NCBI GenBank assembly: GCA_037200005.1
Contig: JBBCGY010000001.1
Coordinates: 42,416-106,415 of the forward strand
Direction of reading: 5' to 3'
Source of the DNA: Alphaproteobacteria bacterium
GTDB taxonomy: Bacteria; Pseudomonadota; Alphaproteobacteria; UBA9219; RFNS01
Length of the DNA: 64,000 nt
In this document: one piece after another, positions 7,151-27,189 of the stretch
Layout of the letters: every line of letters begins with the position of its first letter
How positions within the stretch are numbered: the first letter of the stretch is position 1
Notes under the pieces: model-generated
Seen by the model: the letters and a program-made list of their open reading frames with translations, nothing else
Databases searched by the model: none
Told to the model about the DNA's origin: nothing
Program-made: the position numbers and the translations under genes

Positions 7151-7233
7151 GGAACAATGTGAATGGTCTGTTAGGGGCAAAAAACTCGTCACATCCAACT
7201 TATCAAGTACGTTCCTCGGAAAGAGCTACTCAC

Positions 7234-8503: not shown

Positions 8504-11500
8504 ATGGTCGCTGACATTCAATACACCCAGCCGGAACCGAATTATGACGGATTCCGCGAAGCGCATGTTGAAGAAGCAACTTTCGATTGGCTCTCTGGGC
8601 TTGGCTGGACACTCGCGCATGGGCCGGATTTGGCACCGGAAGGCAAAGCCCCGGAGCGGGCCAGTTATGGCGACGTGCTGTTGTTGGGGCGGTTGAGGAC
8701 AGCCTTGGCCGCGATCAACCCGCAACTCCCCGCCGATGCGATTGACGACGTGGTGCGTAAGATTATCGCAGTCGAAATGCCGTCTTTGGTCGAAGAAAAC
8801 CGGCGCTTGCATAAACTGATGGTCGATGGCGTGGCTGTGCAATACATGCAGGCCGACGGCACGATCAAAAACGACATCGCGTGGCTGATCGACTGGGAAA
8901 ACAAAAAGAACGATTGGCTGGCCGTCAATCAATTCACGGTCATCGAAGAACGCAACAATCGCCGCCCCGACGTGGTGATGTTTATCAACGGTTTGCCCCT
9001 TGCCGTTATTGAATTGAAGAACGCGGGAGACGAAAACGCGACAATCGAAGGCGCGTTCCGCCAGACGCAAGCTTACAAGCAATTGATCCCTTCTCTGTTT
9101 CGCACGAACGGCATACTGATTATTTCCGACGGACTGAAAGCCCGCATCGGCAGCCTGACCGCAGATTATGAGCGTTTCATGCCATGGCGCACGGTGGATG
9201 GGGCCGGTGTCGCGGCCAAAGGAACGCCCGAATTACACACAATGATTCACGGCGTTTTTGAGCAAGGGCGTTTTCTGGAGTTATTGCGCCGGTTCACCGT
9301 GTTTCAAAGCAACGGCAAAGATATTTTCAAAATCGTAGCAGGATATCACCAGTTCCACGCCGTAAAGCTCGCCGTTGCCAGCACCATCGACGCAACGGCC
9401 AGTGAAGGAAATCGCAAAGTCGGCGTCATCTGGCATACGCAAGGATCGGGCAAAAGCCTGTTGATGGCATTTTATGCGGGCAGCGTGATTGCCAATCCTG
9501 CGATGGCCAATCCGACTCTGGTTGTGCTGACCGACCGGAATGATCTGGACGACCAGCTTTTTTAACACTTTCAGCCTATCTCGTGATCTTATCCGCCAGA
9601 CGCCCGCGCAAGCGGGAGATCGCGATGAATTGCGGAAGCTTCTGGCGGTATCATCTGGCGGCGTTATCTTTACGACCATTCAAAAATTTCTGCCCGCTGA
9701 TAGTGAAAAAACTTTCCCGCTGTTGACTGACCGCAAGAATGTCATCGTCATCGCCGATGAAGCGCACCGCAGCCAATATGGCTTCAAGGCCAAGTTGGAT
9801 AAAAAGTCGGGCGAATTAGCTTATGGTTTTGCGAAACACCTGCGCGATGCGCTGCCGAATGCGTCCTTCATTGGCTTTACAGGAACGCCTATTGAGAAAG
9901 CAGATGTCAATACGCCCGCCGTATTCGGCGATTATATTGATGTCTATGATATTCAACGCGCGGTCGAAGACGGCGCGACGGTGCCAATCTATTACGAAAG
10001 CCGCCTAGCCAAACTCCAGCTTGACGAAGAGGAAGTCAAAAATCTTGATGCTGAGGTCGAAGAACTGACCGAAGACGAAGAATCCAGCGAGCGCGAGCGT
10101 AAGAAAAGCAAATGGTCGCGCGTTGAAGCCCTGTGGGAGCCGAAACACGCTTGGCTCAAGTAGCCGCCGATATTGTTCAGCATTTTGAGAACCGTATCAG
10201 CGCCTTAGACGGCAAAGGCATGACCGTATGCATGAGTCGCCGTATTTGCGTGGCGCTCTATAACGAGATTATTAAATTACGGCCCGCATGGCATTCAGAC
10301 GATGACGCGCAAGGCGCTATCAAGATTGTGATGACGGGCAATATCGCCAACGATCCGCCTGAATGGTTGAAACATACGGGCAGCAAGGCGCGCCGTGATT
10401 TCCTGGCAAAGCGGGCGCGCGACGCTAAAGACCCGCTAAAACTTGTTATCGTTCGTGATATGTGGCTTACGGGCTTTGATGCGCCCTGCATGCACACGAT
10501 GTATGTCGATAAGCCGATGCATGGTCATGGCTTGATGCAGGCCATTGCCCGTGTAAATCGCGTATTCCGCGACAAGCCAGGCGGCTTGATCGTTGATTAT
10601 ATCGGGATTGCCCATAATCTGAAACAAGCTCTCTCTATTTATTCCCCCGGCGACCGCGAAGAAGTCGGCATTGACGAGCAGCAAGCCGTCGCAGAGATGA
10701 TGCGCCGCTATGAAATCGTCCGGGATATGTTTTATGGATTCGATTATATGCGCGCGCTGCACGGCACACCGGCTGAACGCTTAGTGCTGATGGCCGAGGC
10801 TCTGGAGTGGATTCTCGATTTGCAGCAACGTGAAGCTGCAAAAGAACAGACCGAACAAGCCAGGAAAGAGGTGCGCCGCAAATTCTCAGACGCCGTTGTT
10901 GGCTTATCGCGCGCCTATGCGCTGGCCGCAACCTCGCCAGAAGCGGGGAAAATTCGTGATGAAGTCGGTTTCTTCCAGGCTATTCGTGCAGCCCTGGCAA
11001 AAAATGAGCCGGGCAAAGGTAGCACACAGGCGGAAATCGATGTGGCCGTCCAACAAATGGTCAGTCGTGCCGTGGTGTCAACGGAGATTGTCGATATTCT
11101 GGCGGCGGCAGGCATTAGAACCCCGGATATATCCATCCTCTCAGATGAATTTCTGGCAGAAATTCAAGGCATGAAGAAGCGTAACCTTGCATTGGAAGCC
11201 TTACAGAAACTCATCAATGGAGAAATAAAATCCCGCATCAAATCGAACGTGGTGCAATCTAAGAAATTCAGCGAACGACTGGAAGCCGCCGTCCGGCGCT
11301 ATCATAACAACGCTATAACTGCCGCGCAGCTTTTGGAGGAGCTGATTGCCATCGCAAAGGATATTAAAGCTGACCGCGAACGAGGAGAAGAACAAGGACT
11401 TAGCGAAGAGGAAATCGCTTTTTATGATGCTCTGGCTGAAAATGAAAGCGCATTGCAGTTGTTGGGCGATGAGAAATTACGAGTGATTGCTACTGAACTG

Positions 11501-11680
11501 GTTGTCTCCGTTCGCAATAATGTGTCTGTTGACTGGATGCACCGCGATAGCGCCCGCGCCAAGTTGCGCATCGAAGTCAAAAAGATTCTCAAGAAATATG
11601 GCTATCCGCCAGATTTACAGGATGCAGCGGTGCAACTGGTGTTGCAGCAGGCCGAAGTTTTGGCCCCACTCTGGGCATAA
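8504..11680 (+). pseudogene. hsdR: Type I restriction endonuclease subunit HsdR, split into three ORFs by two frameshifts (~9560 and ~10140)
   Basis: Three successive overlapping ORFs (8504-9565, 9540-10163, 10133-11680) together cover a ~1058-aa HsdR: N-terminal nuclease region, DEAD-box helicase motifs ([12 protein letters not shown]) and C-terminal domain. The first shift is in a T7 homopolymer (DQLFF|NTFS). Confidence 0.85.
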
Positions 11681-11772
11681 CAATCGCTGACGGCGATCTT
11701 TGGAATTCTATGTAAGAGGCTGCAACAGGTAAGGCCAGATTATGACCGAGAGGAACGAAGATTCTTAAACAA

Positions 11773-12903
11773 TCAAAGCGCCAGCCGGGGCCGGATTAGC
11801 GACAAAGGCCGGGCAGTGGAAAGCTGGAGGCCAACAGCTTCGTTTGGAACATTGGAAAAATCGGTAATAAGCGGCAGCATGGCGTTAGGGCCAAGGGCGC
11901 GTGGTGAGGCACCTAGTTCTTTAAGAGCGGAAACAATTTCCGGTTCATTTAGCGCATGAATGCGCATAAGGGGTTGCGTAGTGTCAGGAATCCATTTCCT
12001 GCGCGAGACTTCATCGCGGCCCGTCGAGATAAGTGCCGCGACCACGTCCTTGAGTTTGTCGCCTTTCGGCAGATTGCCGTTGCTGGTGATTTGAGCGCGG
12101 ACAATCGGCTCGCCCAGGAAGGTCGAAATGGCTTCCGTAAAACTGGCGGCGATTTTCTGATTGCCGTCCTCACTTTGCCAATTCGCCAGGAACACATTTG
12201 GCAAGCTGGAGTCTTTGCCGGGTTTCGCGGCGAAGTCCGCGAGCTGGATTGCAACTCGTGAGCGGCCCGTTTCAATGGGCGCATCGCCGATAAATTCCAG
12301 AACGGCGCTATCGTCCGGCGCTCCCATCGTCGCACCGAGTTTCTTGAAGATGCCGGTCATGGCCGCATTGCCGCCCGCATATTCGCCGACGCGGCCGCGC
12401 GAGACGAGGCCATAGGGCGAATAGCCTTGTTCGCGGCTGACGGATCGCCGGATTTTCTCGTAGATAAAATGCGAGCCAAGTCCAATGCCATTCGGGTATT
12501 CCGCGCTTTTTGTGCGATTACGGAATTCCTGGGATAGTTCCGGCGACACATAGGTATCTTCGCCATAGATAGCAGGATAATGGCGGAAATCCCGGCCATT
12601 GCGTTCCGTGAGAACGGTCGGAAACTCGATTGAGCCACCGGCGAGTTTGGGGCTGCAATTTTCCCACTCCACGATGGCGAAATAAGCCTGAATTTTATTT
12701 TTCTTGATGGCCTCGATAACTTTGCCGAATTTGGCGTTATCAGCGGACGCTCCATGCGTCACGGCTTCACTTTCGACGATTCTATAAAGAATCTCATCAA
12801 GCGCCATATGATGAACGACGTCCGTACCGTTCATGCGCACGATGCTGGCTTTGGCGTTTCCCGGCAGCAGACCGGGCATATTATCGAGCGCAACGGAAGA
12901 CAT
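11773..12903 (-). CDS. uncharacterized conserved protein (376 aa), paralogue of 24000-25298
   Basis: Shares HYPAIYGEDT, YPNG(I/L)GLG, GxVSxGRVxEYxG and KxGAT motifs with the 24000-25298 ORF. It overlaps the upstream XRE regulator gene by 4 bp, so the two are co-transcribed. Confidence 0.6.
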   Translation of the reverse strand: MSSVALDNMPGLLPGNAKASIVRMNGTDVVHHMALDEILYRIVESEAVTHGASADNAKFGKVIEAIKKNKIQAYFAIVEWENCSPKLAGGSIEFPTVLTERNGRDFRHYPAIYGEDTYVSPELSQEFRNRTKSAEYPNGIGLGSHFIYEKIRRSVSREQGYSPYGLVSRGRVGEYAGGNAAMTGIFKKLGATMGAPDDSAVLEFIGDAPIETGRSRVAIQLADFAAKPGKDSSLPNVFLANWQSEDGNQKIAASFTEAISTFLGEPIVRAQITSNGNLPKGDKLKDVVAALISTGRDEVSRRKWIPDTTQPLMRIHALNEPEIVSALKELGASPRALGPNAMLPLITDFSNVPNEAVGLQLSTARPLSLIRPRLAL

Positions 12904-12905
12904 GA

Positions 12906-13556
12906 TTATATTTTCCCCTTGTCGTCGGGGATCGAAGCATTTTCCCAGAATGATTCAAATTGCTCGACATATCTTTCGGCCAAGGGCTTGGAGTGTATCG
13001 AAACGACTTCGACATTATGATCGCTGCGATGCACCGCCTGGGCGATATAGTCATTATAGACGTAATAGGGAATGAGGATTTTCGTCGTCTTATCCAGCCA
13101 GCGATATTCGCAATAGCTGGCGGAGAAATTATAGTCGCCATCCAGGATAAGAACGCGGGCGTCAAGATTCGGAAGCTTGCTCATTCTTTCCATATGCTCG
13201 GTCGCATAATCTTGCGCATAGGAAAGGGTCTTGCCGTCGCTGGAATTAAACTGGCGAATGCGTCCACCGTCTTTCAGCGTTTCGTATATATGATCGAGGA
13301 ATTGTCGGTATCCGGCTTTGCCCGAAAAAACCCTGACTTGGTTTCTCCGCATCCGAACGCCCTCGTCATCCAGGAATTCGACGCCGTGCCGGTCGAAAGC
13401 ATTGGTTATGCTGGCGATGGTCTTCTCATGCGGTTGTACCGTATCGGCCTCGATTTTGCTCACGGTCACGCGGGTAAGCCCGGCCTCCCTAGCCAAGTCT
13501 TCCGCTTTCCATTCCAGTAAGCTGCGCGCTGCGCGAATTTGACGCCCGGTAATCAT
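12906..13556 (-). CDS. XRE-family HTH transcriptional regulator with ~150-aa C-terminal domain
   Basis: N-terminal HTH_XRE (IRAARSLLEWKAEDLAREAGLTRVTVSKIE). It is the first gene of a two-gene minus-strand operon. Confidence 0.7.
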   Translation of the reverse strand: MITGRQIRAARSLLEWKAEDLAREAGLTRVTVSKIEADTVQPHEKTIASITNAFDRHGVEFLDDEGVRMRRNQVRVFSGKAGYRQFLDHIYETLKDGGRIRQFNSSDGKTLSYAQDYATEHMERMSKLPNLDARVLILDGDYNFSASYCEYRWLDKTTKILIPYYVYNDYIAQAVHRSDHNVEVVSIHSKPLAERYVEQFESFWENASIPDDKGKI

Positions 13557-13827
13557 AAAGTTAGCACTAGCATATGGTTTAGTTAAAAATAGATAACAAT
13601 CGAGATAACTAAAATTGGCAATAACATATTAATATTTGTAAAAACATGCCCTGTCAATTCAGAAACATTAGTTTCATGTAAAATTTACTGATACCATAAG
13701 TATATTCTTCTTGATTCCCAGTCGGCTTTGCATTTATGTTCCCAAATATTGGTAATGCCTAATGGTTGAAATTAGCTCGATTAAGCCATTTAAAGCGATT
13801 TTCAAGGGGAATTTCAGATGACCAATT
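13557..13827. promoter_or_regulatory. AT-rich (~30% GC) divergent promoter region between the XRE operon and the rhs regulatory cassette
   Basis: A 270-bp non-coding stretch with strongly depressed GC, flanked by divergently transcribed operons. GAAGGGGA lies ahead of the first small ORF. Confidence 0.5.
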
Positions 13828-13991
13828 CATTTAACGCTTATGTCATGCGCCAGGGCGAACCGGCCATTACCGCCATCATCGAAAATTGGGAAAGGCTTGT
13901 CGGCTTGCGGGCCGAGGCCGAAACGCCGCTTGAGCAGCGCTGGGCGGCGATGATGCATGGTTATGAGCCACAGGCAATGGCAGTCGCATGA
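13828..13991 (+). CDS. small ORF (54 aa), first of four translationally coupled genes
   Basis: Not in the ORF track because it is under 60 aa. RBS AAGGGGA. Its stop overlaps the next start as ATGA. Confidence 0.35.
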
Positions 13992-14278
13992 GCCGGAAAG
14001 CCGAAAAACCTTTCAGCCCGGTTGACGAGATGCAGCTTTCTCAGCCGATGGGCAATCGAACCGCCGAACATTTCCGCGATGCCCTGGATGATTTGGAGCA
14101 TGAGGCGACCGCGCAGGACGCAAAAATAAAGCAATTGCGCCAAGCTATTCTGCAACGCGCACAAGAACTCGACACTACCGTTTGCCAATCCTGGCTGGAT
14201 TCAGAAATCGAAAAAGCGGACCACCTCGCGTTGGAAGCGCGGCTGGAAAAACTCATCAAGTTCCTATCGGAAAAATGA
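13988..14278 (+). CDS. small hypothetical protein (96 aa), helical/charged
   Basis: ATGA-coupled to both neighbours. Confidence 0.5.
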   Translation: MSRKAEKPFSPVDEMQLSQPMGNRTAEHFRDALDDLEHEATAQDAKIKQLRQAILQRAQELDTTVCQSWLDSEIEKADHLALEARLEKLIKFLSEK

Positions 14279-14493
14279 TGATGGCGAATTTTCATGAACG
14301 CCCCATGACATATAAAAAGCTCGTCGCTCGTTACGGCCATGACATGGCTTTCGATTTACTCGTCACTATCGAGAGCCTTGCGAAGATTAAGCACGACATC
14401 ATCGAGATCAACGAAGAAATTCGTCTGCAACGCGCGCTGGAAGTTTTGGACGAGGCGGAATTCGGACAGGCAGATAAAGGCGGGGTCAAATGA
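14275..14493 (+). CDS. small hypothetical protein (72 aa)
   Basis: Starts MMMANF. ATGA-coupled on both sides. Confidence 0.5.
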   Translation: MMMANFHERPMTYKKLVARYGHDMAFDLLVTIESLAKIKHDIIEINEEIRLQRALEVLDEAEFGQADKGGVK

Positions 14494-14738
14494 TTTCCGG
14501 TAATAACATACCCAATAAAAAGCTTGCGCCGCGTGAAATCGAAGTCATGACCTTAACGGCGCGTGGCAAGACGACCACCGAAATTGCAATGCTTCTCTCG
14601 ATTGCCGAGGATACAGTTAAGACTCACATCAAACGATCCTGCCAGAAATTGAACGCGGCCAATAAAACACACGCCGTTGCTCTCGTTATGGCTCGCGGCA
14701 TAATAGAATGTTCCTGTTGTCACCCGAAAGGGGGATAG
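14490..14738 (+). CDS. stand-alone LuxR/GerE-type HTH transcriptional regulator (82 aa)
   Basis: LuxR-type HTH signature (LAPREIEVMTLTARGKTTTEIAMLLSIAEDTVKTHIKRSCQKL). It lies directly upstream of rhs. Confidence 0.7.
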   Translation: MISGNNIPNKKLAPREIEVMTLTARGKTTTEIAMLLSIAEDTVKTHIKRSCQKLNAANKTHAVALVMARGIIECSCCHPKGG

Positions 14739-14820: not shown

Positions 14821-17800
14821 ATGGTGGCACCTGCGAAGAAATTTCACGAAGCGAACGGCGAACTCACCAATGAGGCAGGGGCAACGCGACCGCCGCTCTC
14901 GAGGAACAGCCTCTGGCGGACACTGCGCCCCGGGATCTCGGTGGGAGTAAGCCTCGCGGCAGTCGTCGCTTGCGAAAGCGGCGAACCCAACGCTTCAAAT
15001 GACAACATCGTTTCGATTTCCCAAGCGATAGGCTCTGCGACAATCTATAGCTTGCCTACCAATGTTTTGATGCCCAATGCCATCAATAATCAAAATCTCA
15101 TTGTGGGCCAGGGTCTGCCTTCGATCTATGATGCCAACACGGGAACATTTAGTAGCCTTGAAGTAAACCAGCCTTCGGGGGCGGTCACTTCCTATGCAAT
15201 TAGCAATGCCGGTCACGTTGTCGGCAATTCATTCAATGTTGGGCCGGTTTCCAATTCGGCGTTCATTTCACAGGGCGGACATTTGTCCGATCTATACGCC
15301 GGCAACAACAACGGGGTGACCAGCGTCGCTTACGGCGTCAACAATTATGGCCAAGTCGTCGGCACGATGCCGGTGACGGTCAACGATGCGAACAATAGTC
15401 CACATCCTTTCACGCATGCGTTCTCGTGGCAGGGCAGCGTTACAGACCTTACACCGAACTACTATGGAAATTCAGCCGCCTATGGCATCAACGATGCTGG
15501 GCAGATCGTGGGAACGATAGGAACTGCGGGGGTCAAGTGGCAGGGCGGATCGTCAAGCACGCTGCCGAGCGGCACCAGCACGCCCGCCATGATCAACAAT
15601 GTCGGTCAGATCGTCGGGACATATAGTTCAGGCGGTTCGTCGCACGCTTTCCTTGTGCAGAGCGGCACCCTGACCGATCTCGGAGCCATACAGGGAAGCA
15701 CACCTGTGAGGATCAACAACAAAGGACAAGTTACGGGCGGCTTCTACAACACGGGTGCCGGACAATATTACCCGAGCGTCTGGCAGAATGGCGTCGTGGT
15801 TACGATTCCCACTCTGTCGGGCATTCCCGCAGGCTGGTCTATCACGTCGATAAACGGCATCAATGACAGCGGAACCGTCGTAGGGCAAGGCACGCTTTCG
15901 GGTTCTTCACGGGGTTTTTACCTAACTTCGCCGCAGCTTCTGAACTACGCCATTGCCGGAAAGCCCTACGATCCGAAAGCGAATGGTGGTGAGGATTCGG
16001 CGTCAACCCCGACAGACGATCTATGTGGAACTCATGGCATGTGTGTGCCCAACGCGCAATTGCTGTCGGCCAGCTTGAATTTGAACGATACGCCGATTGG
16101 GTATCAGCCGCCCAAAGGGCCACCAGCCTATATCCGGCTTACATATAATCATCGTGACAGTGTCGCGCCCAGCAGCACTTCCTCGCATGTTGGGCCAAAC
16201 TGGACTCTGAATGTCATTTCTTACATTCAGGATGATCCGGCCAGCCCGGGCCAGAGCGTCACGCGCAACGTGGCGGGCGGCGGTATCGTCGACTACACTT
16301 TTGAGGCAGGGCAGTTCAATACCACCACGGGTGCATTCGGGCCGGAGAAGCAAACCGGGGCGATCTTGAAACGGACTCCCGCGACAGGGTTCAGCGCCAG
16401 TGCTTCCTATGAGCTTTCCTTTCCCGATGGGGCCAAGCAAATATTCTCCTACCCGGATGGAAGCTTCAATTATCCGCGCCGCGCATTCCTGACGGATATC
16501 GTTGATGCCTCAGGCCAGGGCCTGCATTTTGGCTACAATTATCTTCAAGGAACTTTCGGCGCGATCAATTGCACGCCGGGATGTCCGCAACTGCAATCAG
16601 TTTCTGATGCTAATTTCCGTGCAACAAACTTCGTCTACGGTGACGCATCTAATGTCTTGCGCGTGACGCGGATTAATGACCCGTTCGGGCGTCACGCCGA
16701 TTTAGCTTATGATGGCAGCGGACGGCTTTCGTCAATCACGGATGTGATCGGCATTCAATCGTCTTTCACCTATGACACCACCGACCCTACTTTCATCAAA
16801 AAGCTAACGACACCCTATGGCGATAGCAATTTCGTCTTTGGGCAAGATACGGCGACGGATCGTCGTTGGCTCACACTCTCCGATGCCGTGGGCAATACGG
16901 AAAAAGTGGAATACCGGGGCAGCAGCGCCAGCGGCATAGCGGCGTGCGACAAAAACACGAGCGATGCGTCGTGCAGTGTCTCGACCTCCGTGCCGACAGG
17001 CATGCCTAACGGCATCAATAACGCCGATCTCGACAAGCGCAACACCTTTGTCTGGAACAAATGGATGTATGCGAATGGCTATGGCAGCGATTACACGCAG
17101 GCGAATGTTACCCATTGGCTCAAGGACGGTGCGGGCAATCCCGTGGGGATTCCGGAAAGCGTCAAGCCGCTGTACGAATCCCGCATTTGGTATAATTATC
17201 CCGGCCAGAACGATCCTAGCACCCCAGGAACCCTGTCTGTGCCGAGGGCGACGGGCCGCGTGATCACCGATCCGCTTTACGGGCAAGCGCCGCAGAATCA
17301 GGTTTACCAAAGTCAATATAACAGCCTCGGCAAGCCCACCTTGACCGTCGATCCCTACAAGGTTTCAGGCAACAACAATGAAGGCCGAACTACACGCATG
17401 ACCTATGATGCCTCCGGCGTCGATCTTTTGACGGTGGAACAGAAAACCGGCAGCGGAACGCCGGGGACATGGGCGACGATTGCTTCCTACGTCTATACCG
17501 ATCCGACAGAACAGCCCACATCGATCCACAAACCGATCCGCTATACCGACGCGGCGGGGCAAACTTATAAATTCAAATACAATGGCGACGGCCAATTGAT
17601 CTATGCCGCCAATCCCTACAACGATACGACGTATAATGAATATCATCCGTCCGGCAAGCTCCTGCGGACGACCATGCCTGTGCCGAGCGTAAACTGGAAT
17701 ACCATCGATTATGGAACCGATATTAACGGCGCGCCGACGGGGGCGAGCAACAGCAGCGCCCTAAGGGACACCGCCATTACCTACGACTCCGCCGATCGTC

Positions 17801-20202
17801 CGTATGACGTGACCGACCGGATGGGTCTGGTGAAGCGTTTCGGCTACGACAATCTCGACCGGGTAACGCGGGTGGATTACGCCCCCGGCACGGCGGGCAC
17901 GACCTATGAGACGAACACCTATACCAACCTCGACCTGACATCGCACCGCGACCGGCTTGGCCGGGTTAGCACCGATGTTTACACGGCGAACCGGCAGCTG
18001 TGGCTGAGCTTCAATGCTTCGGGAACGCGGCGGGGCTTCACCTATTACCCGAACGGCGCGCTACAAGGCTACTACGACGAGAACGACCATCCTACAATCT
18101 ACGGCATCGACGGCCAGGGACGCGCCAACGCCGTCGTCTATCCCAATGGCAACCAGACGAATTACTACTACGATGATGGCGGGCGGATGCGCACCATTGT
18201 CGATCTCGACGGCTCGAACCAGCGCTGGCGGAACATTAAATATAACGTCGATAATAGCGTCCATATCCGCGACTATACCAACCCGGCAAATCCGTCCGAT
18301 CCCGTGGTTCTGGCGACGACAACCGCGACCTTCACCTACGATCCATGGTTCCCCGGACAAATGACTTCAATGGCCGATGCCAGCGGAACGACCAACTATA
18401 CATACAAAACCGTAGGCACCGTCGGCGCCTTACAACTCGCGACCGAAAATCCGCCGACGGTAAGCGGCGACGCGGATAAAATCACCTACACCTATGACCA
18501 GAAGGGACGGCTCGCCTCGCGCCAGATCGGTATCGGCACGGCGAGCGTGCTGCCGCAGGAAAGCTGGGTGCGCGACACCTATGGCCGCATTAACAGGCAC
18601 ATCATTCCCGACGGCAACCTGTTCTATTACGACTTCAACGGCGCGAGCAATCAGGTGACAATGCGCGCGTTTCGCAATCAGGCGCTGACGGAGATCGACC
18701 CGCTGAATACGCGCACGATGATGAGCTACGACACGGCGGCGAACGACTCGCGGCTGCTGACGATCAACAACCCGCCCTACGACAACAGCGCGCCCGGCGC
18801 GCGGGACTTCACCCTCAATTGGGGATCGTCGCCCGCCAATCCGTACGTTCCGGCGACGATCACCGACTCCGCTGGAGGCCCCGGCGGGGCGTGGGGACAG
18901 CGGGTGTGGACGATGGGCTATGACGCGCGCGACCGGCTGACCTCGGCGGTCGCCGCCGACCGCAGCTATTCGTTTACCCTGGACGCGCCGGGCAACGCGA
19001 CGAGCTTCACCAGCACGCACTATCCGAGCGGCGGGCTGTATAGCTTTAACTCGACCTACAACACGTCGAACCAGATGACGGTGGCGAACGGCAACGCGCT
19101 GATCTACGACCCCTACGGCAACCTCGTCACCCACACGAACTACCGCAGCTTCAAGTACGACGCCGAGAACCGCCTGATCGAGGTCGACTTCCCCGCCGCG
19201 CCCGCCGACAAGGTTGAGATGCAATATGACGGTCTTGGTCGCCGCACGCAGATCAAATCCACCATCGGCGGCGTCGTCACGACGCGGAACCTGCAATGGT
19301 GCGCCCAGACGACCTCGCCGCCGTTCCAGGGCGCGGCGGAAGAGATATGCGTCGAGCGCGACGCATCGGGCGGCATGCAGCGCATGGTCTATCCCGAGGG
19401 CGAATATCGCGCCAACGGCGGCCGGTACTTTTATGAACGCGACCAGACCGGCAACATCCGCGACGTGATGAAGATGGCGGCGGGATTGACGACCGCCGCG
19501 CGCGATAGCTCCTTCAACTACACGCCTTATGGCGGCGTCGACGGCAAAGACGGCACTGCCGAGCCGCTGCAGCAGTTCGCGGGACTGCTGTATGAGAAGA
19601 ACAGCAACCTGTTCCTCTCCCGCACCCGCGCCTATGCCCCATGGATCGGCAGATGGCTCCAGCGCGATCCGATTGGGCAGAATGGGGGGAGTAATGTTTA
19701 TGAGTATGCGGGGGCGAGTCCGATTAACAAGATTGATCCGAGCGGGTTGCAGGGGGTGCGACCTGGGTTAATAGAAACGATGCGACCTACAATAGGAGTG
19801 CCACCAGCAGCGGGGATCAACGAGGGGGCAGGAAATTACGCCGATTATCTTCAAGAAAATGGAGAAATGATGGGTGATCTAGCCACCCTTTATAGGGCCA
19901 CTAGCGCGGCGGTTGCCGGTGCGAGCAACCAATCAATGCGAGAGGATATTGAAAAAGCAAAAGTATGCACATCGTTTGGAAACAGCATGTCGGCGGATCA
20001 GCCGTTATGGTGCGGGCCTGGCGGATGCGCGGATAGCGTCAGGCAGCAGTGGCTGGATGCGACCGGCGGCTTAGTGTATCCACAAATCATCGAGTCTTTC
20101 AAAAAGAGGTTTGAACCGGCTCCCTCGCGGCTTGTGTCGACGCCGATGCGTGGCAATGACTTCGGTAATTCGGTTTTATTCCCTAATGTGGGCCCAGGTT
20201 AG
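14821..20202 (+). CDS. Rhs-family polymorphic toxin (1793 aa): N-terminal HAF repeats, RHS/YD repeats, RHS core, DPxGL cleavage motif, ~150-aa C-terminal toxin domain
   Basis: Repeated NxxGQ(V/I)VG and HAF motifs in the first ~350 aa. Many YDxxGR(L/R) repeats. RHS core YFYERDQTGNIRDVM. IDPSGLQ (PxxxxDPxGL) at ~19740, followed by a unique tail. A lipobox-like VVAC lies near the N-terminus. Confidence 0.9.
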   Translation: MVAPAKKFHEANGELTNEAGATRPPLSRNSLWRTLRPGISVGVSLAAVVACESGEPNASNDNIVSISQAIGSATIYSLPTNVLMPNAINNQNLIVGQGLPSIYDANTGTFSSLEVNQPSGAVTSYAISNAGHVVGNSFNVGPVSNSAFISQGGHLSDLYAGNNNGVTSVAYGVNNYGQVVGTMPVTVNDANNSPHPFTHAFSWQGSVTDLTPNYYGNSAAYGINDAGQIVGTIGTAGVKWQGGSSSTLPSGTSTPAMINNVGQIVGTYSSGGSSHAFLVQSGTLTDLGAIQGSTPVRINNKGQVTGGFYNTGAGQYYPSVWQNGVVVTIPTLSGIPAGWSITSINGINDSGTVVGQGTLSGSSRGFYLTSPQLLNYAIAGKPYDPKANGGEDSASTPTDDLCGTHGMCVPNAQLLSASLNLNDTPIGYQPPKGPPAYIRLTYNHRDSVAPSSTSSHVGPNWTLNVISYIQDDPASPGQSVTRNVAGGGIVDYTFEAGQFNTTTGAFGPEKQTGAILKRTPATGFSASASYELSFPDGAKQIFSYPDGSFNYPRRAFLTDIVDASGQGLHFGYNYLQGTFGAINCTPGCPQLQSVSDANFRATNFVYGDASNVLRVTRINDPFGRHADLAYDGSGRLSSITDVIGIQSSFTYDTTDPTFIKKLTTPYGDSNFVFGQDTATDRRWLTLSDAVGNTEKVEYRGSSASGIAACDKNTSDASCSVSTSVPTGMPNGINNADLDKRNTFVWNKWMYANGYGSDYTQANVTHWLKDGAGNPVGIPESVKPLYESRIWYNYPGQNDPSTPGTLSVPRATGRVITDPLYGQAPQNQVYQSQYNSLGKPTLTVDPYKVSGNNNEGRTTRMTYDASGVDLLTVEQKTGSGTPGTWATIASYVYTDPTEQPTSIHKPIRYTDAAGQTYKFKYNGDGQLIYAANPYNDTTYNEYHPSGKLLRTTMPVPSVNWNTIDYGTDINGAPTGASNSSALRDTAITYDSADRPYDVTDRMGLVKRFGYDNLDRVTRVDYAPGTAGTTYETNTYTNLDLTSHRDRLGRVSTDVYTANRQLWLSFNASGTRRGFTYYPNGALQGYYDENDHPTIYGIDGQGRANAVVYPNGNQTNYYYDDGGRMRTIVDLDGSNQRWRNIKYNVDNSVHIRDYTNPANPSDPVVLATTTATFTYDPWFPGQMTSMADASGTTNYTYKTVGTVGALQLATENPPTVSGDADKITYTYDQKGRLASRQIGIGTASVLPQESWVRDTYGRINRHIIPDGNLFYYDFNGASNQVTMRAFRNQALTEIDPLNTRTMMSYDTAANDSRLLTINNPPYDNSAPGARDFTLNWGSSPANPYVPATITDSAGGPGGAWGQRVWTMGYDARDRLTSAVAADRSYSFTLDAPGNATSFTSTHYPSGGLYSFNSTYNTSNQMTVANGNALIYDPYGNLVTHTNYRSFKYDAENRLIEVDFPAAPADKVEMQYDGLGRRTQIKSTIGGVVTTRNLQWCAQTTSPPFQGAAEEICVERDASGGMQRMVYPEGEYRANGGRYFYERDQTGNIRDVMKMAAGLTTAARDSSFNYTPYGGVDGKDGTAEPLQQFAGLLYEKNSNLFLSRTRAYAPWIGRWLQRDPIGQNGGSNVYEYAGASPINKIDPSGLQGVRPGLIETMRPTIGVPPAAGINEGAGNYADYLQENGEMMGDLATLYRATSAAVAGASNQSMREDIEKAKVCTSFGNSMSADQPLWCGPGGCADSVRQQWLDATGGLVYPQIIESFKKRFEPAPSRLVSTPMRGNDFGNSVLFPNVGPG
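18996..19750. repeat. direct repeat copy 1 (~755 bp, ~98% identical to 21505-22258): rhs core-end segment
   Basis: Near-identical nucleotide and protein sequence (GNATSFTSTHYPSGGLYSF...PINKIDPSGL) in both copies. The antisense ORF-track entries are duplicated too (19140-19385 = 21651-21896). Confidence 0.85.
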
Positions 20203-20207
20203 TCCTA

Positions 20208-21478
20208 TGAAAAAGTTTACTCTATTGCTTGTCGCGCTTTGTAGTCTGACAATGTTACCGGCTCATGCCGCTGACCAAGACTCCAAACCACCCGTCATTG
20301 ATATTCCTGCCACGCGAAAAGAGGCGGAGTCTGGAGATGCTCGGGCTCAATATAATCTGGGCATAGCTTATCTCAACGGTTACGGGGTGAAGAAAAATAA
20401 AGATGAAGCTATTGAATGGATTTACAAAGCAGGGAAGAACAATGATGCCCTCGCAATATATTTCTTGGGCAGCGCATATCATGATGGCGACCTTTTGCCA
20501 CAAGACTACGCCAAGGCTATGAAGTGGTATCACAGGTCCGATGAATTATACGGCAGTCCCCTTGCGCAGAATATGCTTGGCGTGATGCACGAAAACGGTC
20601 AGGGGGCTCCACAGAATTATGAAGAAGCGGCTAGGTGGTATCGCAAAGCTGCCGAGAATATTTACGCACCGGCTCAATCCCATCTTGGATTCCTATACTA
20701 CGCTGGACGCGGCGTTCCTAAGGACGATCAAAAGGCTCTATATTGGCTTAAGAAAGCAGCCATACAAAACGATGCGCCAGCAAAGCTTATGCTAGGCATT
20801 ATGCACTATAAAGGCGAAGGAGTGGAAAAGAATTACGTTAAAGCTGTCAGCTATTTTCGCGAAGCCGCAGACGTCGGAATATCGATAGCTGAACGATATT
20901 TGGGAAATATGTATTACCACGGCGAAGGCGTTTCCAAGGATGAAGCCCAGGCTGTGTCTTGGTGGCGCAAAGCCGCCGAACAAGGGGATAGGGAGTCGGA
21001 AAAGATCATAGGTGGTATGTACTATTATGGCACAGGAGTGTCGAAGGATTTTTCCCAAGCCGTTTTATGGTGGCAAAAAGCTGCGGAAAAGGGTGATGTC
21101 GATGCTCAATGCAACTTGGCGAAAGCTTACTATCATGGAGAAGGTATAGGAAAAGATGAAACTCAAGCTGTGTTATGGTGGCGGAGGGCCGCGGCACAAG
21201 GACATGGAGAATCCCTCCTTTATTTAGGACAAGCGTATTTTAGTAGCATAGGCGTATCGCAAGATGATGTGCAGGCTTATATATGGCTAAGCTTGGCGGC
21301 TACAAGAAATCAGTCGTCAGCGGTTGCAACACTCACGGAACTCGAAAAGTCCATGACGCCGGAACAAATCGCTGAAGCCAGAAAACGCGTGGCAGAATGG
21401 AAACCCAAGCCTGAGCCAAAGCCTGCCCCAATAGGGCCAATACCCGAAATTCTAAAAGAAGTCCGTGAAGATTTATGA
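20208..21478 (+). CDS. Sel1-repeat protein with signal peptide (candidate periplasmic immunity protein for Rhs-CT1)
   Basis: Signal peptide MKKFTLLLVALCSLTMLPAHA. At least 9 Sel1 repeats (AQYNLGIAYLNGYGVKKNKDEAIEWIYKAG...). Sits immediately downstream of the rhs toxin tip. GC ~45% versus ~62% for the rhs body. Confidence 0.8.
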
Positions 21479-22668
21479 TCTCGACTTCGAGGATGCATTT
21501 GGGCAATGCGACGAGCTTCACCAGCACGCACTATCCGAGCGGCGGGCTGTATAGCTTTAACTCGACCTACAACACGTCGAACCAGATGACGGTGGCGAAC
21601 GGCAACGCGCTGATCTACGACCCCTACGGCAACCTCGTCACCCACACGAACTACCGCAGCTTCAAGTACGACGCCGAGAATCGCCTGATCGAGGTCGACT
21701 TCCCCGCCGCGCCCGCCGACAAGGTTGAGATGCAATATGACGGTCTTGGCCGCCGCACGCAGATCAAATCCACCATCGGGGGCGTCGTCACGACGCGGAA
21801 TCTGCAATGGTGCGCCCAGACGACCTCGCCGCCGTTCCAGGGCGCGGCGGAAGAGATATGCGTCGAGCGCGACGCATCGGGCGGCATGCAGCGCATGGTC
21901 TATCCCGAGGGCGAATATCGCGCCAACGGCGACCGGTACTTTTATGAACGCGACCAGACCGGCAACATCCGCGACGTGATGAAGATGGCGGCGGGATTGA
22001 CGACCGCCGCGCGCGACAGCTCCTTCAACTACACGCCTTATGGCGGCGTCGACGGCAGAGACGGCACCGCCGAGCCGCTGCAGCAGTTCGCGGGACTGCT
22101 GTATGAGAAGAACAGCAACCTGTTCCTCTCCCGCACCCGCGCCTACGCCCCATGGATCGGCAGATGGCTCCAGCGCGATCCGATTGGGCAGAATGGCGGC
22201 GCGAATGTTTATGAATATGCGGGGGCGAGTCCGATTAACAAGATTGATCCGAGCGGGCTTCAAAGCATCCAGAATGCGGATGACTGGATAAAACAGAGAA
22301 ATGCCCCTGCTCAGCCGTCAAATAGTATTTGGAGTGAGATCCTAGATAAAATCAGAGAACCTGTGTCTAGAAATGAAGCCATTAGTGAGATTACAAATTT
22401 CCGTCAATCTGGAGAGGCCCAAACTGAAGCACAGATAGCTAGAATGCTCATGGGTTTACCCGTCGAACCTGATTTTTCTGTTGCTATAGGAGGGGCTGAA
22501 GGTGAGCAAGATCTTGGCAGAGCGATTATGTCGGTAGCGCGCGAGATTTTGCGCCGCCCTGCGGAGCAGTCGTGCCCAATAGTTCAGAGAAAAGTCTTCG
22601 GTCAATCCTTGCCACCAAGTGATTTTGGTGACAAGAATCTCCCACTGCCATCTATATTAACCCTTTAA
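21475..22668 (+). CDS. orphan rhs C-terminal cassette: duplicated core-end plus an alternative 136-aa CT toxin domain
   Basis: The first 260 aa match Rhs residues ~1390-1650, including DPSGLQ. A different tail follows. Its start overlaps the Sel1 gene stop (ATGA), and it lacks the N-terminal 1400 aa. Confidence 0.8.
   Translation: MISTSRMHLGNATSFTSTHYPSGGLYSFNSTYNTSNQMTVANGNALIYDPYGNLVTHTNYRSFKYDAENRLIEVDFPAAPADKVEMQYDGLGRRTQIKSTIGGVVTTRNLQWCAQTTSPPFQGAAEEICVERDASGGMQRMVYPEGEYRANGDRYFYERDQTGNIRDVMKMAAGLTTAARDSSFNYTPYGGVDGRDGTAEPLQQFAGLLYEKNSNLFLSRTRAYAPWIGRWLQRDPIGQNGGANVYEYAGASPINKIDPSGLQSIQNADDWIKQRNAPAQPSNSIWSEILDKIREPVSRNEAISEITNFRQSGEAQTEAQIARMLMGLPVEPDFSVAIGGAEGEQDLGRAIMSVAREILRRPAEQSCPIVQRKVFGQSLPPSDFGDKNLPLPSILTL
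21505..22258. repeat. direct repeat copy 2 of the rhs core-end segment
   Basis: See copy 1. The offset between copies is 2509 bp. Confidence 0.85.
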
Positions 22669-22700
22669 AGAATATGAGTGGAATTGAGGGAGTTAATGCA

Positions 22701-23489
22701 ATGAAGAAGATAATTATTATTACGGCATTTGCTTTGATGGTCGCATCAGTTCAAGCTTATGCTGCCGTCCAGGATGAAAAAGCCGACAGTTTGTTAGGGC
22801 ATCGCCTGTCCGAACAATTACGGAAAACAGAAGCGCAGACAACTCTTGCTGCGGGAAAAGAGCTATTTAAAACAGGCGAAGGTCTTTCTAAGGATAATGT
22901 CGATGCAGTAAAGCTATTTCGCGTAGCTGCCAATCTTGGCTCGATGGAGGCACAAACAATTCTCGGCGCTGCATACCTTAGTGGCGATGGAGTGCAAAAA
23001 GATATTCCTGAAGCTTTAAAATGGATACAAAAATCTGCCGCCCAAGGAGACGCCAAGGCTCAACATTTATTGGGTGTATTGTATCATGAAGGATCAGACG
23101 TAAAAAAAGACAATGTGAAATCGTTAAAATGGATACGGAAAGCAGCGGAGCAAGGTTTGCCATCGGCACAATTTAGTCTTGGCACTATGCTTTCTAAAGG
23201 ATATGGAACACACCGAGATGAAACTTCAGCGATGGAATGGTTTCATAAATCCGCAAACCAAGGCTATGCTAAGGCCCAAATTATGCTCGGAATTGCATAT
23301 CACCTAGGTAAAGATATATCTAAAGACGATATTCTAGCTGATCAATGGCTGATATTGGCCGGGGAAAAAGAGGCACGTGATGATTTGGAAAAATCCATGA
23401 CCCCCGAACAAATCGCCGAAGCTATAAACCGCGCGGCGGAATGGAAGCCGAAACCACCAACCAAGCCCGATCCTGAATCCAAACCGTAG
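22701..23489 (+). CDS. Sel1-repeat protein with signal peptide (candidate immunity for orphan CT2)
   Basis: RBS GAGGGAG. Signal peptide MKKIIIITAFALMVASVQAYA. About 5 Sel1 repeats. The C-terminal KSMTPEQIAEA...EWKPKP tail is shared with the first Sel1 protein. Confidence 0.8.
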   Translation: MKKIIIITAFALMVASVQAYAAVQDEKADSLLGHRLSEQLRKTEAQTTLAAGKELFKTGEGLSKDNVDAVKLFRVAANLGSMEAQTILGAAYLSGDGVQKDIPEALKWIQKSAAQGDAKAQHLLGVLYHEGSDVKKDNVKSLKWIRKAAEQGLPSAQFSLGTMLSKGYGTHRDETSAMEWFHKSANQGYAKAQIMLGIAYHLGKDISKDDILADQWLILAGEKEARDDLEKSMTPEQIAEAINRAAEWKPKPPTKPDPESKP

Positions 23490-23882: not shown

Positions 23883-23999
23883 ATCATCTTCCAGCAAGCT
23901 GGGTAGCGCACTGACTTTGGCGATGAAACTAAATTGATTGATTGCCCCATGCTGGCATTAAATTGTATATTCTGAGGTACATTTTAGGGCGGCATATTT

Positions 24000-25298: not shown

Positions 25299-25526
25299 CC
25301 ACCTCTTGATCTAAATTCCAACAATAGATCGACTTTCCGCGAGGGCGCGGAAAGCGGTTCCCGCCGCCGTTCTGCCGCGTAAAGAACGCGGCGCGGTGGC
25401 TCGCTACGCGCTGCGCCGACAAGAGCGGCTTACGCTTTCGCGCCCCCAAGCGGGCGCATTTGCTTACCGGCATGAGTGAGCGCGGCCAGCACCACTCTCT
25501 ATTTCCAACCGCCTTTTTCTAACCCC

Positions 25527-25553
25527 CTCTTTCGCCGAAAGAGGGTTTTTTCA
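25527..25553 (+). terminator. Rho-independent terminator (ccctcttt-cgccg-aaagaggg + TTTTTT)
   Basis: Perfect 8-bp GC-rich stem, 5-nt loop and a T6 tail. It sits at the 3' end of a ~230-nt GC-rich non-coding stretch. Confidence 0.65.
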
Positions 25554-25584: not shown

Positions 25585-25776
25585 ATGAGCCAGGAAGCAT
25601 ATCGCGTGAAAGAATTCTGCAACCGCTACGCCATTTCAAAAGCCAGCTTCTACCGGGAAACAGCGGCGAAGCGGCTGCATATCCTAAAACGTGGCCGTAC
25701 AACGCTCGTTGCCCGCACCGAAGCCGAACGCTGGTTTGAAAGCCTTGGCCAAGGCCAGCCGCAGCAATCAGCCTGA
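25585..25776 (+). CDS. AlpA/Xis-like phage-type transcriptional regulator (63 aa)
   Basis: RBS AAGGGAGGAAG. AlpA-like HTH (FCNRYAISKASFYRETAAKRLHILKRGRTTLVARTEAERW). Immediately upstream of the integrase. Confidence 0.7.
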   Translation: MSQEAYRVKEFCNRYAISKASFYRETAAKRLHILKRGRTTLVARTEAERWFESLGQGQPQQSA

Positions 25777-25843
25777 TCGCATTCAATATCCCGAATATTT
25801 CCAAAGCCATTTTTCGTCAATCTTATTCTCATGGAGGCATGTC

Positions 25844-27031
25844 ATGCGCCATACGGGACATATTCGCCAGCGTTCAGAAGGGAGTTTCGAGCTTCGCTAT
25901 AGCATCGGCACCGATCCGGTCACGGGAAAATGGAAAGTCAAAACCGTCACCGTTAAGGGAACGCGCAAAGCTGCCGAGAAAGAATTGCGCCGCATACTCG
26001 ATGCAATCGATGACAATGATTATGTCGAACCCAATAAAATCACTACCCGTGATTTTTTGACACAATGGCTTGAAACAATGCGTTCCCAGATAACCCCCAA
26101 ATCCTATGAAAGCTACGCTGAAATAGTCGATAACTTCCTTATCCCAACTCTTGGCGGTCATATTCTGGCGAAACTTGCTCCGGCTGTTATCCAAAAAGCC
26201 TACAATGGATGGGAAGCTGGTGGCCGCAGGGATAAAAAGGCGGGCGGGCTGGCGGCGCGTTCCCGTCTCTATATCCACCGCATCCTTAAATCGGCACTCA
26301 AACATGCCGTGCAAATACAGCTAATCGCCCGCAATCCCGCCGACGCGGTTAAAGCGCCGCGCGTCAAGAAAGCCGCCATAACTACATTGACCGTGGATCA
26401 ATCGGCGGCGCTGCTCGATGCCCTGTCCGGCAAGCCGCTTTATTGGCCTGTGTTGCTTGCCCTAACAACGGGCATGCGCCGGGGTGAAATTCTGGCGCTT
26501 CGCTGGAAGAATATCGACTTTGAAAAGAAAACTGTTCGCGTCGTCGAAAGTCTAGAGCAAACCAACACAGGCATTCGCTTCAAGGCTCCGAAAACGGAAC
26601 GGAGTCGTGCCGTCATGTTGCCGGATTATGCCGTTGAAGAACTGCGGAGACTGAAAAAAGAACAGGAGAAAAAATTGTCGGAATCAGGAATCGGCCAAAC
26701 CACTGAAACGCTGGTTTGCGGTCGCTATGACGGCGAACCGCTATGGCCTACCTCACTTACGCATGAATTCGTGAAGGCCATGAAGAAACTGCCGAAACTG
26801 CCGCGCGCCAGATTCCATGATTTGCGCCATTCCCATGCCACGCAACTCCTGACAGCAGGAATCCATCCCAAAATCGCGCAAGAACGGCTGGGACATACCA
26901 CGATTACGACAACCCTAGACCTCTATTCCCATGCGACGGACACCATGCAAGACGAGGCTGCATCAAAGCTCGACAATGCCTTCCGTTCTGCTATAAAGGC
27001 CCGTTCCGACCAAGCGCCACGACTAGGATAA
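25844..27031 (+). CDS. tyrosine-type site-specific recombinase/integrase (phage integrase family)
   Basis: Catalytic region RFHDLRHSHATQLLTAGIHPKIAQERLGHTTITTTLDLYSH (R...HxxR...Y). The most likely start is MRHTGHIRQRSEG rather than the extended ORF from 25691. Confidence 0.9.
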   Translation: MRHTGHIRQRSEGSFELRYSIGTDPVTGKWKVKTVTVKGTRKAAEKELRRILDAIDDNDYVEPNKITTRDFLTQWLETMRSQITPKSYESYAEIVDNFLIPTLGGHILAKLAPAVIQKAYNGWEAGGRRDKKAGGLAARSRLYIHRILKSALKHAVQIQLIARNPADAVKAPRVKKAAITTLTVDQSAALLDALSGKPLYWPVLLALTTGMRRGEILALRWKNIDFEKKTVRVVESLEQTNTGIRFKAPKTERSRAVMLPDYAVEELRRLKKEQEKKLSESGIGQTTETLVCGRYDGEPLWPTSLTHEFVKAMKKLPKLPRARFHDLRHSHATQLLTAGIHPKIAQERLGHTTITTTLDLYSHATDTMQDEAASKLDNAFRSAIKARSDQAPRLG

Positions 27032-27111
27032 ATTGGTTCTGTAGCAATTTCTGTAGCAAAATCGATTTTGCTTCCGGTAGGAATACTCTAAGTGTATGTT
27101 TTTGCTGATGT

Positions 27112-27187
27112 GACCTTGTAGCTCAGCCGGTAGAGCATCTGACTTTTAATCAGGGGGTCGCGGGTTCGAACCCCGCCGAGGTCACCA
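27112..27187 (+). tRNA. tRNA-Lys (anticodon UUU) with encoded CCA
   Basis: Cloverleaf: acceptor gaccttg/cgaggtc; D-arm gctc-agccggta-gagc; anticodon arm tctga-cTTTTaa-tcagg; T-arm gcggg-ttcgaac-cccgc; discriminator a; CCA. Confidence 0.9.
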
Positions 27188-27189
27188 GC

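Follow-up and report, generated by a model that had tools for sequence, protein, structure and literature searches.

GNAT-Xre two-gene modules were flagged as toxin-antitoxin system-like (TAS-like) by Makarova, Wolf and Koonin (2009, PMC2701414), who favoured a function in resistance. On the integrative and conjugative elements (ICEs) of Alphaproteobacteria, switches resembling the controller (C) proteins of restriction-modification (R-M) systems, including QseC of ICEMlSymR7A, are found between divergent promoters (PMC8789080). In this work, we describe a locus that invites comparison with both, located in a stretch of 64,000 nucleotides (hereafter the window) from an alphaproteobacterial genome assembly (GCA_037200005.1, contig JBBCGY010000001.1, positions 42,416 to 106,415). 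It is a minus-strand pair in which the gene of an XRE regulator precedes that of a 376-aa protein, and both open reading frames (ORFs) are present where the first-pass annotation, made by a model from the letters alone, had placed them (Table 1). Based on our data, the pair combines one regulator and one enzyme in a module characteristic of the small integrative islands, most of them mobilisable, that uncultured Alphaproteobacteria carry, and we are highly confident of its fold, its regulator and its identity as an island module. What the enzyme does for the islands can be stated with much less assurance.

Fold of the enzyme and architecture of the regulator

Neither the 376-aa protein nor its 432-aa paralogue in the same window has a match in Pfam, NCBIfam, PADLOC (PADLOC-DB v2) or PHROGs, as expected from the first reading, which had found no name for the protein, and searches of the PDB sequences with the single protein and with a profile returned nothing useful. 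That reading had also set the 376-aa protein apart from HipA, rightly so, for no HipA or kinase match was found in Pfam, NCBIfam or PADLOC and the fold is of another kind. Its statement that the family could not be assigned to any characterised enzyme no longer holds: the family is assignable to the GNAT acyl-CoA N-acyltransferase superfamily, apparently in a tandem form. A confident AlphaFold model of the 376-aa protein shows a GNAT fold, apparently made up of two GNAT-like halves, and follows the GNAT core order β1-α1-α2-β2-β3-β4-α3-β5-α4-β6. The best full-length Foldseek matches include the tandem-GNAT Eis2 and N-myristoyltransferase (E 1.7e-6 to 1e-4, probability ~1.0), aligned with template-modelling (TM) scores of only ~0.3, so that the fold class is clear but the domain arrangement is the family's own. 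The GNAT toxins KacT and 7byy are also among the structural matches.

At the sequence level, curated GNAT models gave sub-threshold matches to three of 81 aligned family members (Acetyltransf_1 0.025, FR47 0.11, Acetyltransf_3 0.18). A firmer connection is provided by a 407-aa protein encoded behind a related XRE in another locus (L029), which is recognised by Pfam Acetyltransf_1 (2.2e-8, residues 98-154) and is a remote homologue of the family according to hhalign (probability 92%, E 5e-7, 292 columns). In GNATs, motif A reads Q/R-x-x-G-x-G/A and follows strand β4, and motif B reads N..A...Y/F.K.G on β5-α4. The hhalign comparison places N-G-I-G-L-G and GRVGEYAGGNAAMTGIFKKLGA of the family on motifs A and B of the Acetyltransf_1-positive homologue, although the Gly positions vary in the family, and the segment GxVSxGRVxEYxG...N..M...F.K.GA then corresponds to strand β5 plus motif B. 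The motifs quoted in the first-pass annotation were recovered in both copies of the window (HYPAIYGEDT; YPNGIGLG in the short copy and YPNGLGLG in the long one; GLVSRGRVGEYAG and GMVSQGRVCEYSG, respectively). An extra helix is inserted ahead of the pyrophosphate loop. Across the 81 aligned members E174 is the sole invariant residue, and E115, D116 and W304 are conserved at 90% or more; E115 and D116 sit on strand β4 and E174 on strand β5. Taken together with the motif mapping, this conservation makes the N-terminal half the likely catalytic acyl-CoA domain, as predicted from the aligned sequences.

The C-terminal half has a GNAT-like order of strands and helices and a motif-B-like segment, MRIHALNEPEIVSALKELGA. 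A comparison of the two halves with hhalign was not significant and did not demonstrate an internal duplication; the tandem-GNAT label is therefore drawn from the model, in which the family apparently has a two-domain architecture.

The first protein of the pair was described as an XRE regulator with a C-terminal part of about 150 aa, likened to a sensor domain. Its 216 residues do comprise an HTH (Pfam HTH_3, residues 7-58, E 1.4e-7), which resembles that of C proteins, and a ~150-aa extension. In PADLOC the protein is reached only by generic HTH models (Control_protein, the RmrA N-terminus and CapH). The extension has a PLD/Nuc/TrmB-like fold, without a Pfam Regulator_TrmB match. The HKD catalytic motif HxK(x)4D is absent from this domain, which rules out an active PLD nuclease. 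TrmB binds its effector through a region that includes the PLD-like domain. Judging from its fold, the C-terminal domain of XRE is PLD/TrmB-like, has no catalytic function and serves in sensing or oligomerisation, in line with the sensor proposed at first. We found 169 homologues of the regulator at E <= 0.001, of which the best 120 share 49-100% identity with it and, with few exceptions, have 199-234 aa. The identical one is encoded on a 1.83-Mb contig of the alphaproteobacterial metagenome-assembled genome (MAG) GCA_037975565.1, where the 376-aa gene is also called, again with no Pfam match. In the literature searched, no prior description was found of either the GNAT family or the XRE-PLD regulators.

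The junction between the two genes reads AAA ATA TAA tc ATG, with the stop codon TAA at 12908-12906 and the ATG at 12903. The genes are thus separated by a gap of 2 nt and do not share the 4-bp overlap that had been reported.

Occurrence of the pair on mobile islands

The GNAT family is rare. A word-indexed search of 5.8 billion proteins recovered 19 members, and an exhaustive profile search of 1.84 billion representatives yielded 150 clusters when grouped at 50% identity; 86 of these had E <= 1e-30, and nearly all contained proteins of 380-430 aa. Among 185,579 species genomes there were nine family loci, all in MAGs of Alphaproteobacteria or Chlorobi. No relatives were found in the viral contigs of IMG/VR, the 72,556 plasmids of PLSDB or the phages of INPHARED.

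Of the alphaproteobacterial copies located through the GNAT, 16 could be evaluated, and 14 of these have an XRE gene directly upstream; the exceptions are the solo copy of the window and L009. At the junctions the two genes overlap by up to 4 nt or lie up to 88 nt apart, and XRE adjoins even the GNAT of L022, which shares only ~16-27% identity with the query. Three close XRE loci detected independently all have a family GNAT downstream as well. Around the pair, 11 loci have a relaxase (PF03432), mostly together with a NikA-like gene, and seven have a tyrosine or serine recombinase; DUF736 and ArdC occur in several. Besides this backbone there is a variable cargo, which includes type I and MmeI-like R-M systems, SoFic/Fic, Abi_2, reverse transcriptase, SLATT, DUF4917, ParDE and Rhs. 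A minimal element, in L007, spans ~7.5 kb and consists of a serine recombinase, XRE, GNAT, three small genes, a relaxase and NikA. The consistent partners of the GNAT are XRE and the relaxase/NikA/integrase backbone.

The first reading had raised the possibility that the family recurs beside rhs or R-M islands. It does recur on mobile islands, and a type I R-M locus adjoins the pair in the window as reported, but the link with rhs is not general. Rhs genes were present in four of ~16 independent loci, and a role specific to rhs, for instance as a toxin-activating acyltransferase, was dropped as a general explanation.

The paralogue of the 376-aa protein is indeed encoded on the opposite strand, but it is more distant than the ~55% identity first estimated: the two proteins are 44% identical by BLASTP (411 columns) and 48% over shared MAFFT columns, with a ~50-aa insertion in the long copy. 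The two genes face outward around ~11.1 kb, as the description of an inverted bracket implied. The bracket is, however, not the product of a recent inverted duplication. No inverted repeat was found between the genes at the DNA level, and a neighbour-joining tree put the 376-aa copy in a short-form clade and the 432-aa copy in a long-form clade; a recent inverted duplication is ruled out by these two results. Each copy is 52% identical to a protein from elsewhere (P0001 for the short form and P0004 for the long form), against 48% to each other. The two copies represent two old lineages brought together in one composite island. The long copy retains every family-invariant residue. A tblastn search detected no XRE near it, and no operator common to the XRE promoter and the region upstream of the 432-aa gene was found. 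It has a promoter-like site (23942-23971) and a strong terminator-like hairpin (25525-25545), in scans for sigma-70 promoters and terminators that overall did no better than chance.

Such a close association with transfer genes raises the question of whether the enzyme serves the life cycle of the island itself, by acylating a protein of the element or of its helper, such as a repressor, integrase, relaxase or pilus/coupling protein, and thereby switching excision or mobilisation, as in the ImmR/ImmA pair of repressor and antirepressor. The GNAT gene would share a transcript with the likely master regulator; relaxase/NikA genes are found 1-6 kb away from it in 11 loci, the integrase adjoins it in the window and in L004, and it is kept in the minimal element. 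Nevertheless, we consider a life-cycle function very improbable. The Chlorobi homologues have no mobile-element context, the two copies within one island come from different lineages, and the regulators of this family accompany many unrelated enzymes for which a role in protein modification is not evident.

Candidate functions of the module

In two Chlorobi MAGs the family gene, whose product is 37-41% identical to the window proteins, has no XRE and forms part of an operon (L010 1-7891; L013 4923-14810) with two short-chain dehydrogenases/reductases, two genes resembling type III polyketide synthases (PKSs) or KAS III, an ATP-binding cassette (ABC) ATPase, an FtsX permease, a LolA-like gene and an outer-membrane protein. 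From its gene content, this operon is probably a lipid or polyketide biosynthesis-export cluster. In one of the MAGs (L013) the GNAT gene is frameshifted.

The relatives of the regulator are also informative. Directly behind XRE-PLD genes we found cyclodipeptide synthases (L015 11650-12387, L043 6666-7463 and L045 6614-7399), EgtD-like Methyltransf_33 proteins of the histidine-type N-methyltransferase kind (L032 3223-4239 and L037 1792-3087) and a phosphoribosyltransferase (L030 2967-3596). Other XRE-PLD relatives precede single-domain GNATs (L003, L035), a Formyl_trans_N-like protein (L006), an MTS methyltransferase (L001), unknown proteins and, in L001, the Rhs gene itself. The XRE clades correlate only partly with the class of the partner. 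The XRE-PLD family is at the head of a series of one-regulator-one-enzyme cassettes on alphaproteobacterial mobile islands.

A possible target of the regulator lies upstream of its own gene. The AT-rich control region carries a TTAACTAAACCA box ~15-30 nt upstream of the XRE ATG (approximately 13570-13590), and a (G)GAATTAACCA-type box was found 20-35 nt upstream of the XRE starts in seven further loci (L004, L007, L012, L014, L018, L023 and L025). This box is often followed by TATGGTAT. It could be an operator or belong to the promoter of a short-leader or leaderless transcript. A scan for sigma-70 promoters did no better than chance, and no C-box dyad was identified beside the XRE gene, where the conserved ATTAACCA-type box was the only candidate.

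The reading we prefer, tentatively and a little short of an even chance, is that of a regulated small-molecule N-acyltransferase module. According to this proposal, XRE would bind a putative site in the AT-rich region between the divergent promoters and set the expression of its own operon and probably that of the opposing small-ORF/LuxR/rhs operon, by analogy with C proteins and QseC. The GNAT is predicted to acylate, with acyl-CoA as the donor, the amino group of a small molecule that probably resembles an amino acid, and the sensor domain of XRE may respond to the product or its precursor. The two proteins would then constitute a regulated signal or metabolite module and not a classical toxin-antitoxin (TA) pair. 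As separate questions, a small-molecule rather than a macromolecular target seems to us evenly balanced, and the sensing of the enzyme product by XRE doubtful. A non-toxic small-molecule function is favoured by the Chlorobi copies, which sit without XRE in a PKS/ABC-export operon, and by the intact solo copy of the window with its promoter-like site and terminator-like hairpin. The position of XRE relatives ahead of one-step biosynthetic enzymes that use amino acids or aminoacyl-tRNA (aa-tRNA), the near-neutral isoelectric point (pI) of the family (median 6.9) and the role of the PLD-like domain in effector binding by TrmB point to a small molecule as well.

The same loci can be read in terms of toxicity. 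The GNAT might arrest growth, for instance by acetylating aminoacyl-tRNA or a different component of translation as TacT, AtaT and KacT do, with its fused halves mimicking their homodimer, and XRE might silence it by transcription and perhaps by binding, in a TA- or abortive-infection-like module. The gene order is as would be expected, with the HTH gene first and junctions of 2 nt to -4 nt in several loci, and the pair is kept even in the ~7.5-kb element of L007, on islands otherwise packed with R-M, Abi_2, reverse transcriptase, SoFic, ParDE and Rhs. XRE relatives precede an overt toxin, Rhs, and two of the alternative partners, the cyclodipeptide synthases and the Fmt-like protein, use aa-tRNA; an AlaX-like tRNA-editing gene (L003) and an HD_4 hydrolase (L006) adjoin the family gene. 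The presence of KacT and 7byy among the structural matches and the earlier flagging of GNAT-Xre pairs as TAS-like (PMC2701414) agree with a toxin, too. On the other hand, the solo copy is intact and has no regulator in the same island, and the Chlorobi operons offer no antitoxin candidate. The supposed antitoxin is a well-folded two-domain protein that is more conserved than the supposed toxin, the opposite of most type II systems; there is no match to PADLOC or TA families; the pI is near neutral, unlike that of tRNA-binding toxins; and EgtD-like methyltransferases are hard to see as toxins. On balance, we regard a TA-like function as somewhat unlikely, though it is a serious rival. The first-pass annotation had considered the layout typical of a defence or addiction module, a view to be given up for a metabolic enzyme family with no enrichment on such islands. 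The outcome lies between the two: the protein belongs to an enzyme family, yet one strongly associated with mobile islands that carry R-M, Rhs, Abi, Fic and TA genes, and what the Chlorobi operons and the solo copy weaken is a purely addictive toxin.

Two of the loci have further neighbours of note. In L003 the AlaX-like gene (11290-11940) is convergent with the GNAT gene, and in L006 a small GNAT, a NUDIX hydrolase and the HD_4 hydrolase, of the RelA/SpoT type, are likewise convergent with it (11315-14552). From their annotation, these neighbours hint at a possible link with aa-tRNA or nucleotide metabolism.

The enzyme could also serve detoxification or resistance, acylating a toxic amine in the manner of Eis on aminoglycosides or of the tabtoxin-resistance GNATs, with XRE sensing the compound and inducing the enzyme. 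The sensor-type domain of XRE would suit such a role, the aminoglycoside acetyltransferase Eis2 is among the best full-length structural matches, and the Chlorobi copy could be the self-resistance gene of a biosynthetic cluster; resistance was also the function that Makarova et al. preferred for GNAT-Xre pairs (PMC2701414). We nevertheless judge it improbable. TM scores to Eis are only ~0.3, and the cyclodipeptide synthase, EgtD-like and phosphoribosyltransferase partners of the regulator family are biosynthetic, not detoxifying. Moreover, the pair is a near-constant feature of the island backbone and not sporadic cargo, and the plasmid collection searched, which represents the usual route by which resistance genes spread, contained no relatives.

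Several observations weigh against the small-molecule module that we prefer. Defence, TA and toxin genes are abundant around the pair. Members of the GNAT family do not all conserve the G-x-G loop, and the status of the C-terminal half as a true GNAT rests on the topology of the model and on Foldseek matches of low TM score (~0.3). The regulator is more conserved (50-78% identity) than the enzyme (36-52%), which fits no model considered here. No relaxase was detected in the window or in the ~14-kb extension of its island. Finally, XRE genes of the subtype found ahead of the GNAT also occur ahead of an Rhs toxin gene (L001) and of the gene for a Cys/His-rich protein of 316 aa (L020); these two partners speak against a strict pairing of product and receptor and fit a control of toxic cargo. 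A more elaborate form of the proposal, a LuxI/LuxR-like chemical signalling encoded by the islands, in which each XRE would sense, by means of its TrmB-like domain, an amino-acid-derived molecule made in one step by the adjacent enzyme and gate toxic cargo such as Rhs, perhaps also transfer, is in our opinion unlikely.

The composite island and its place among known systems

The features of the window that bear on the module are listed in Table 1. The divergent operon opens with four small, translationally coupled genes, for proteins of 57, 96, 72 and 82 aa. Homologues of the first, encoding 55-57 aa, were found with tblastn beside XRE in L001 (9105-9272), L003 (9104-9271), L006 (8909-9082) and L014. 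This small ORF (..YGExGVQAxIExxERxEGIR..LExRW..) always adjoins XRE, either upstream and co-directional or divergent. The fourth gene (14490-14738) encodes an HTH protein of the LuxR/GerE type (Pfam GerE 1.3e-17).

Table 1. Positions in the window of the two-gene module, its motifs and the surrounding island
Feature	Position	Strand	Remarks
Putative tandem-GNAT acyltransferase, short form, 376 aa	11773..12903	-	N half residues ~17-200, C half residues ~200-376
GLVSRGRVGEYAG	12373-12411	-	Predicted strand β5, via hhalign to the L029 protein
YPNGIGLG	12475-12498	-	Predicted motif-A pyrophosphate (CoA-binding) loop, via hhalign to the L029 protein
HYPAIYGEDT	12553-12582	-	Predicted strand β4, via hhalign to the L029 protein
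XRE-PLD regulator, 216 aa	12906..13556	-	HTH residues ~4-60 (window 13377-13547); PLD/Nuc/TrmB-like domain residues ~70-206 (window 12939-13349)
AT-rich divergent control region	13557..13817		Between the XRE operon and the small-ORF/LuxR/rhs operon; carries the TTAACTAAACCA box
Conserved 57-aa ORF	13818..13991	+	First gene of the divergent operon; gene-called in the source record
Small genes of 96 aa, 72 aa and 82 aa	13988..14738	+	Gene calls in the source record; translationally coupled, 4-nt overlaps
rhs module	14821..23489	+	Rhs of 1793 aa; Sel1-repeat immunity-like gene 20186-21478; orphan Rhs C-terminal cassette 21475-22668; second Sel1 gene 22674-23489
Putative tandem-GNAT acyltransferase, long form, 432 aa	24000..25298	+	No adjacent XRE; BLASTP E 3e-119 to the 376-aa copy
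Island end	25585..27187	+	HTH_17 excisionase-like ORF 25585-25776; tyrosine integrase 25691-27031; tRNA-Lys 27112-27187

Besides these four small genes, the ~11.1 kb between the two GNAT copies encode Rhs, an orphan Rhs tip with a Sel1 protein on either side, and a small membrane protein. A direct repeat of 300 nt with 99% identity (18990-19289 and 21501-21800) joins the main rhs gene to the orphan tip. Each Rhs toxin tip is followed by a Sel1-repeat protein, and the direct repeat would be a substrate for recombinational switching of toxin tips. The Rhs N-terminus (14821-15000) begins with a signal- or lipoprotein-like leader (..SLAAVVAC..), followed by short repeats of the NNxGxVVG type. No PAAR, VgrG or other gene of the type VI secretion system (T6SS) was found near rhs, which suggests that this Rhs may be delivered in a Sec-dependent manner rather than by a T6SS.

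The right end of the island is formed by an excisionase-like ORF (Pfam HTH_17, 1.7e-4), the integrase (Phage_integrase, 6e-29) and a tRNA-Lys found by both ARAGORN and Rfam, the scan of the window with the latter returning the tRNA alone. A segment of 17 nt of its T-arm (27157-27173) occurs in inverted orientation at 27233-27249, beside a 40-nt hairpin (27184-27223). This inverted copy may be the remnant of an attachment site, judging from its location; a direct repeat of the 3' end of the tRNA was not found within the window. The GC content is ~0.50 over roughly the first 32 kb of the window and ~0.62 thereafter.

To the left of the XRE operon, the type I R-M locus includes a SoFic gene (7159-8319) and an unknown gene for 484-517 aa. 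Its hsdM is split into ORFs for HsdM_N (151 aa) and N6_Mtase (383-392 aa), and its hsdR into three (353, 207 and 486-515 aa). These R-M genes (2332-3892 and 8504-11680) look degraded, and the same splits appear in the gene calls of the source record. The island runs ~14 kb past position 1 of the window, where it contains DUF736, a second XRE-PLD paralogue and a short XRE unit. The paralogue (P0229, 223 aa, 61% identical; L020 10001-13578) is the one followed by the 316-aa Cys/His-rich protein, and the short unit consists of a 141-aa XRE and a 422-aa protein with a faint TIR-like match. A unit identical to that of the 223-aa XRE and the 316-aa protein lies ~0.9 Mb away on the same contig (L021), next to an integrase fragment.

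These results provide the fold and probable chemistry of a protein family named by no sequence library, and they define a regulator architecture that is new to the literature searched, in which an HTH resembling that of C proteins is joined to a PLD/TrmB-like domain without catalytic function. Should the enzymes produce signals, the cassettes would represent a new family of communication systems encoded by mobile elements; should the enzymes be toxins, they would be new effectors of the TA or abortive-infection kind under a controller of unusual promiscuity. Whatever the case, the XRE-GNAT pair is a practical marker for small mobilisable islands of uncultured Alphaproteobacteria that carry R-M, Abi, Fic and Rhs genes.

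The closest described relatives of the module are the GNAT-Xre TAS-like pairs (PMC2701414), which also place an Xre HTH gene beside a GNAT gene in a compact, horizontally mobile unit and whose role in resistance or as TA systems is likewise debated. In the present case, however, the GNAT apparently has two domains, comprises 376-432 aa and is invisible to the Pfam GNAT models, the Xre protein has an additional PLD/TrmB-like domain, and the module is linked to a single class of integrative mobilisable island. The backbone of an integrative and mobilisable element, that is, a recombinase together with a relaxase or oriT accessory gene, was found among the family loci; the window shows only the integrase and the tRNA-Lys.

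TacT, AtaT, KacT and ItaT share with our module a GNAT-fold enzyme whose gene follows that of a DNA-binding partner and is carried by mobile DNA. They are single-domain homodimers of ~160-175 aa with RHH (DUF1778) antitoxins, whereas here an apparently fused two-domain protein accompanies an XRE-PLD regulator, and solo as well as XRE-less Chlorobi copies occur. On the regulator side, C proteins and QseC have ~80 aa and only an HTH, compared with the 216 aa and second domain of XRE-PLD, while TrmB and TrmBL2 are archaeal proteins with a winged helix and a further sugar-binding subdomain, unlike the bacterial, HTH_3-type XRE-PLD.

Tandem-GNAT enzymes are represented by MshD, and Fem is also grouped with them. 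Eis/Eis2 and N-myristoyltransferase consist of one chain of ~320-450 aa with two GNAT-like halves and the acyl-CoA site in one of them, an arrangement that the family apparently shares. They differ from it in the TM scores of ~0.3, in the lack of sequence similarity and in their gene context, and the SCP2 domain of Eis has no counterpart here. GNAT-Xre pairs and tandem GNATs were thus already known, and what is new are this particular GNAT family, the XRE-PLD architecture and the series of single-enzyme cassettes that it heads.

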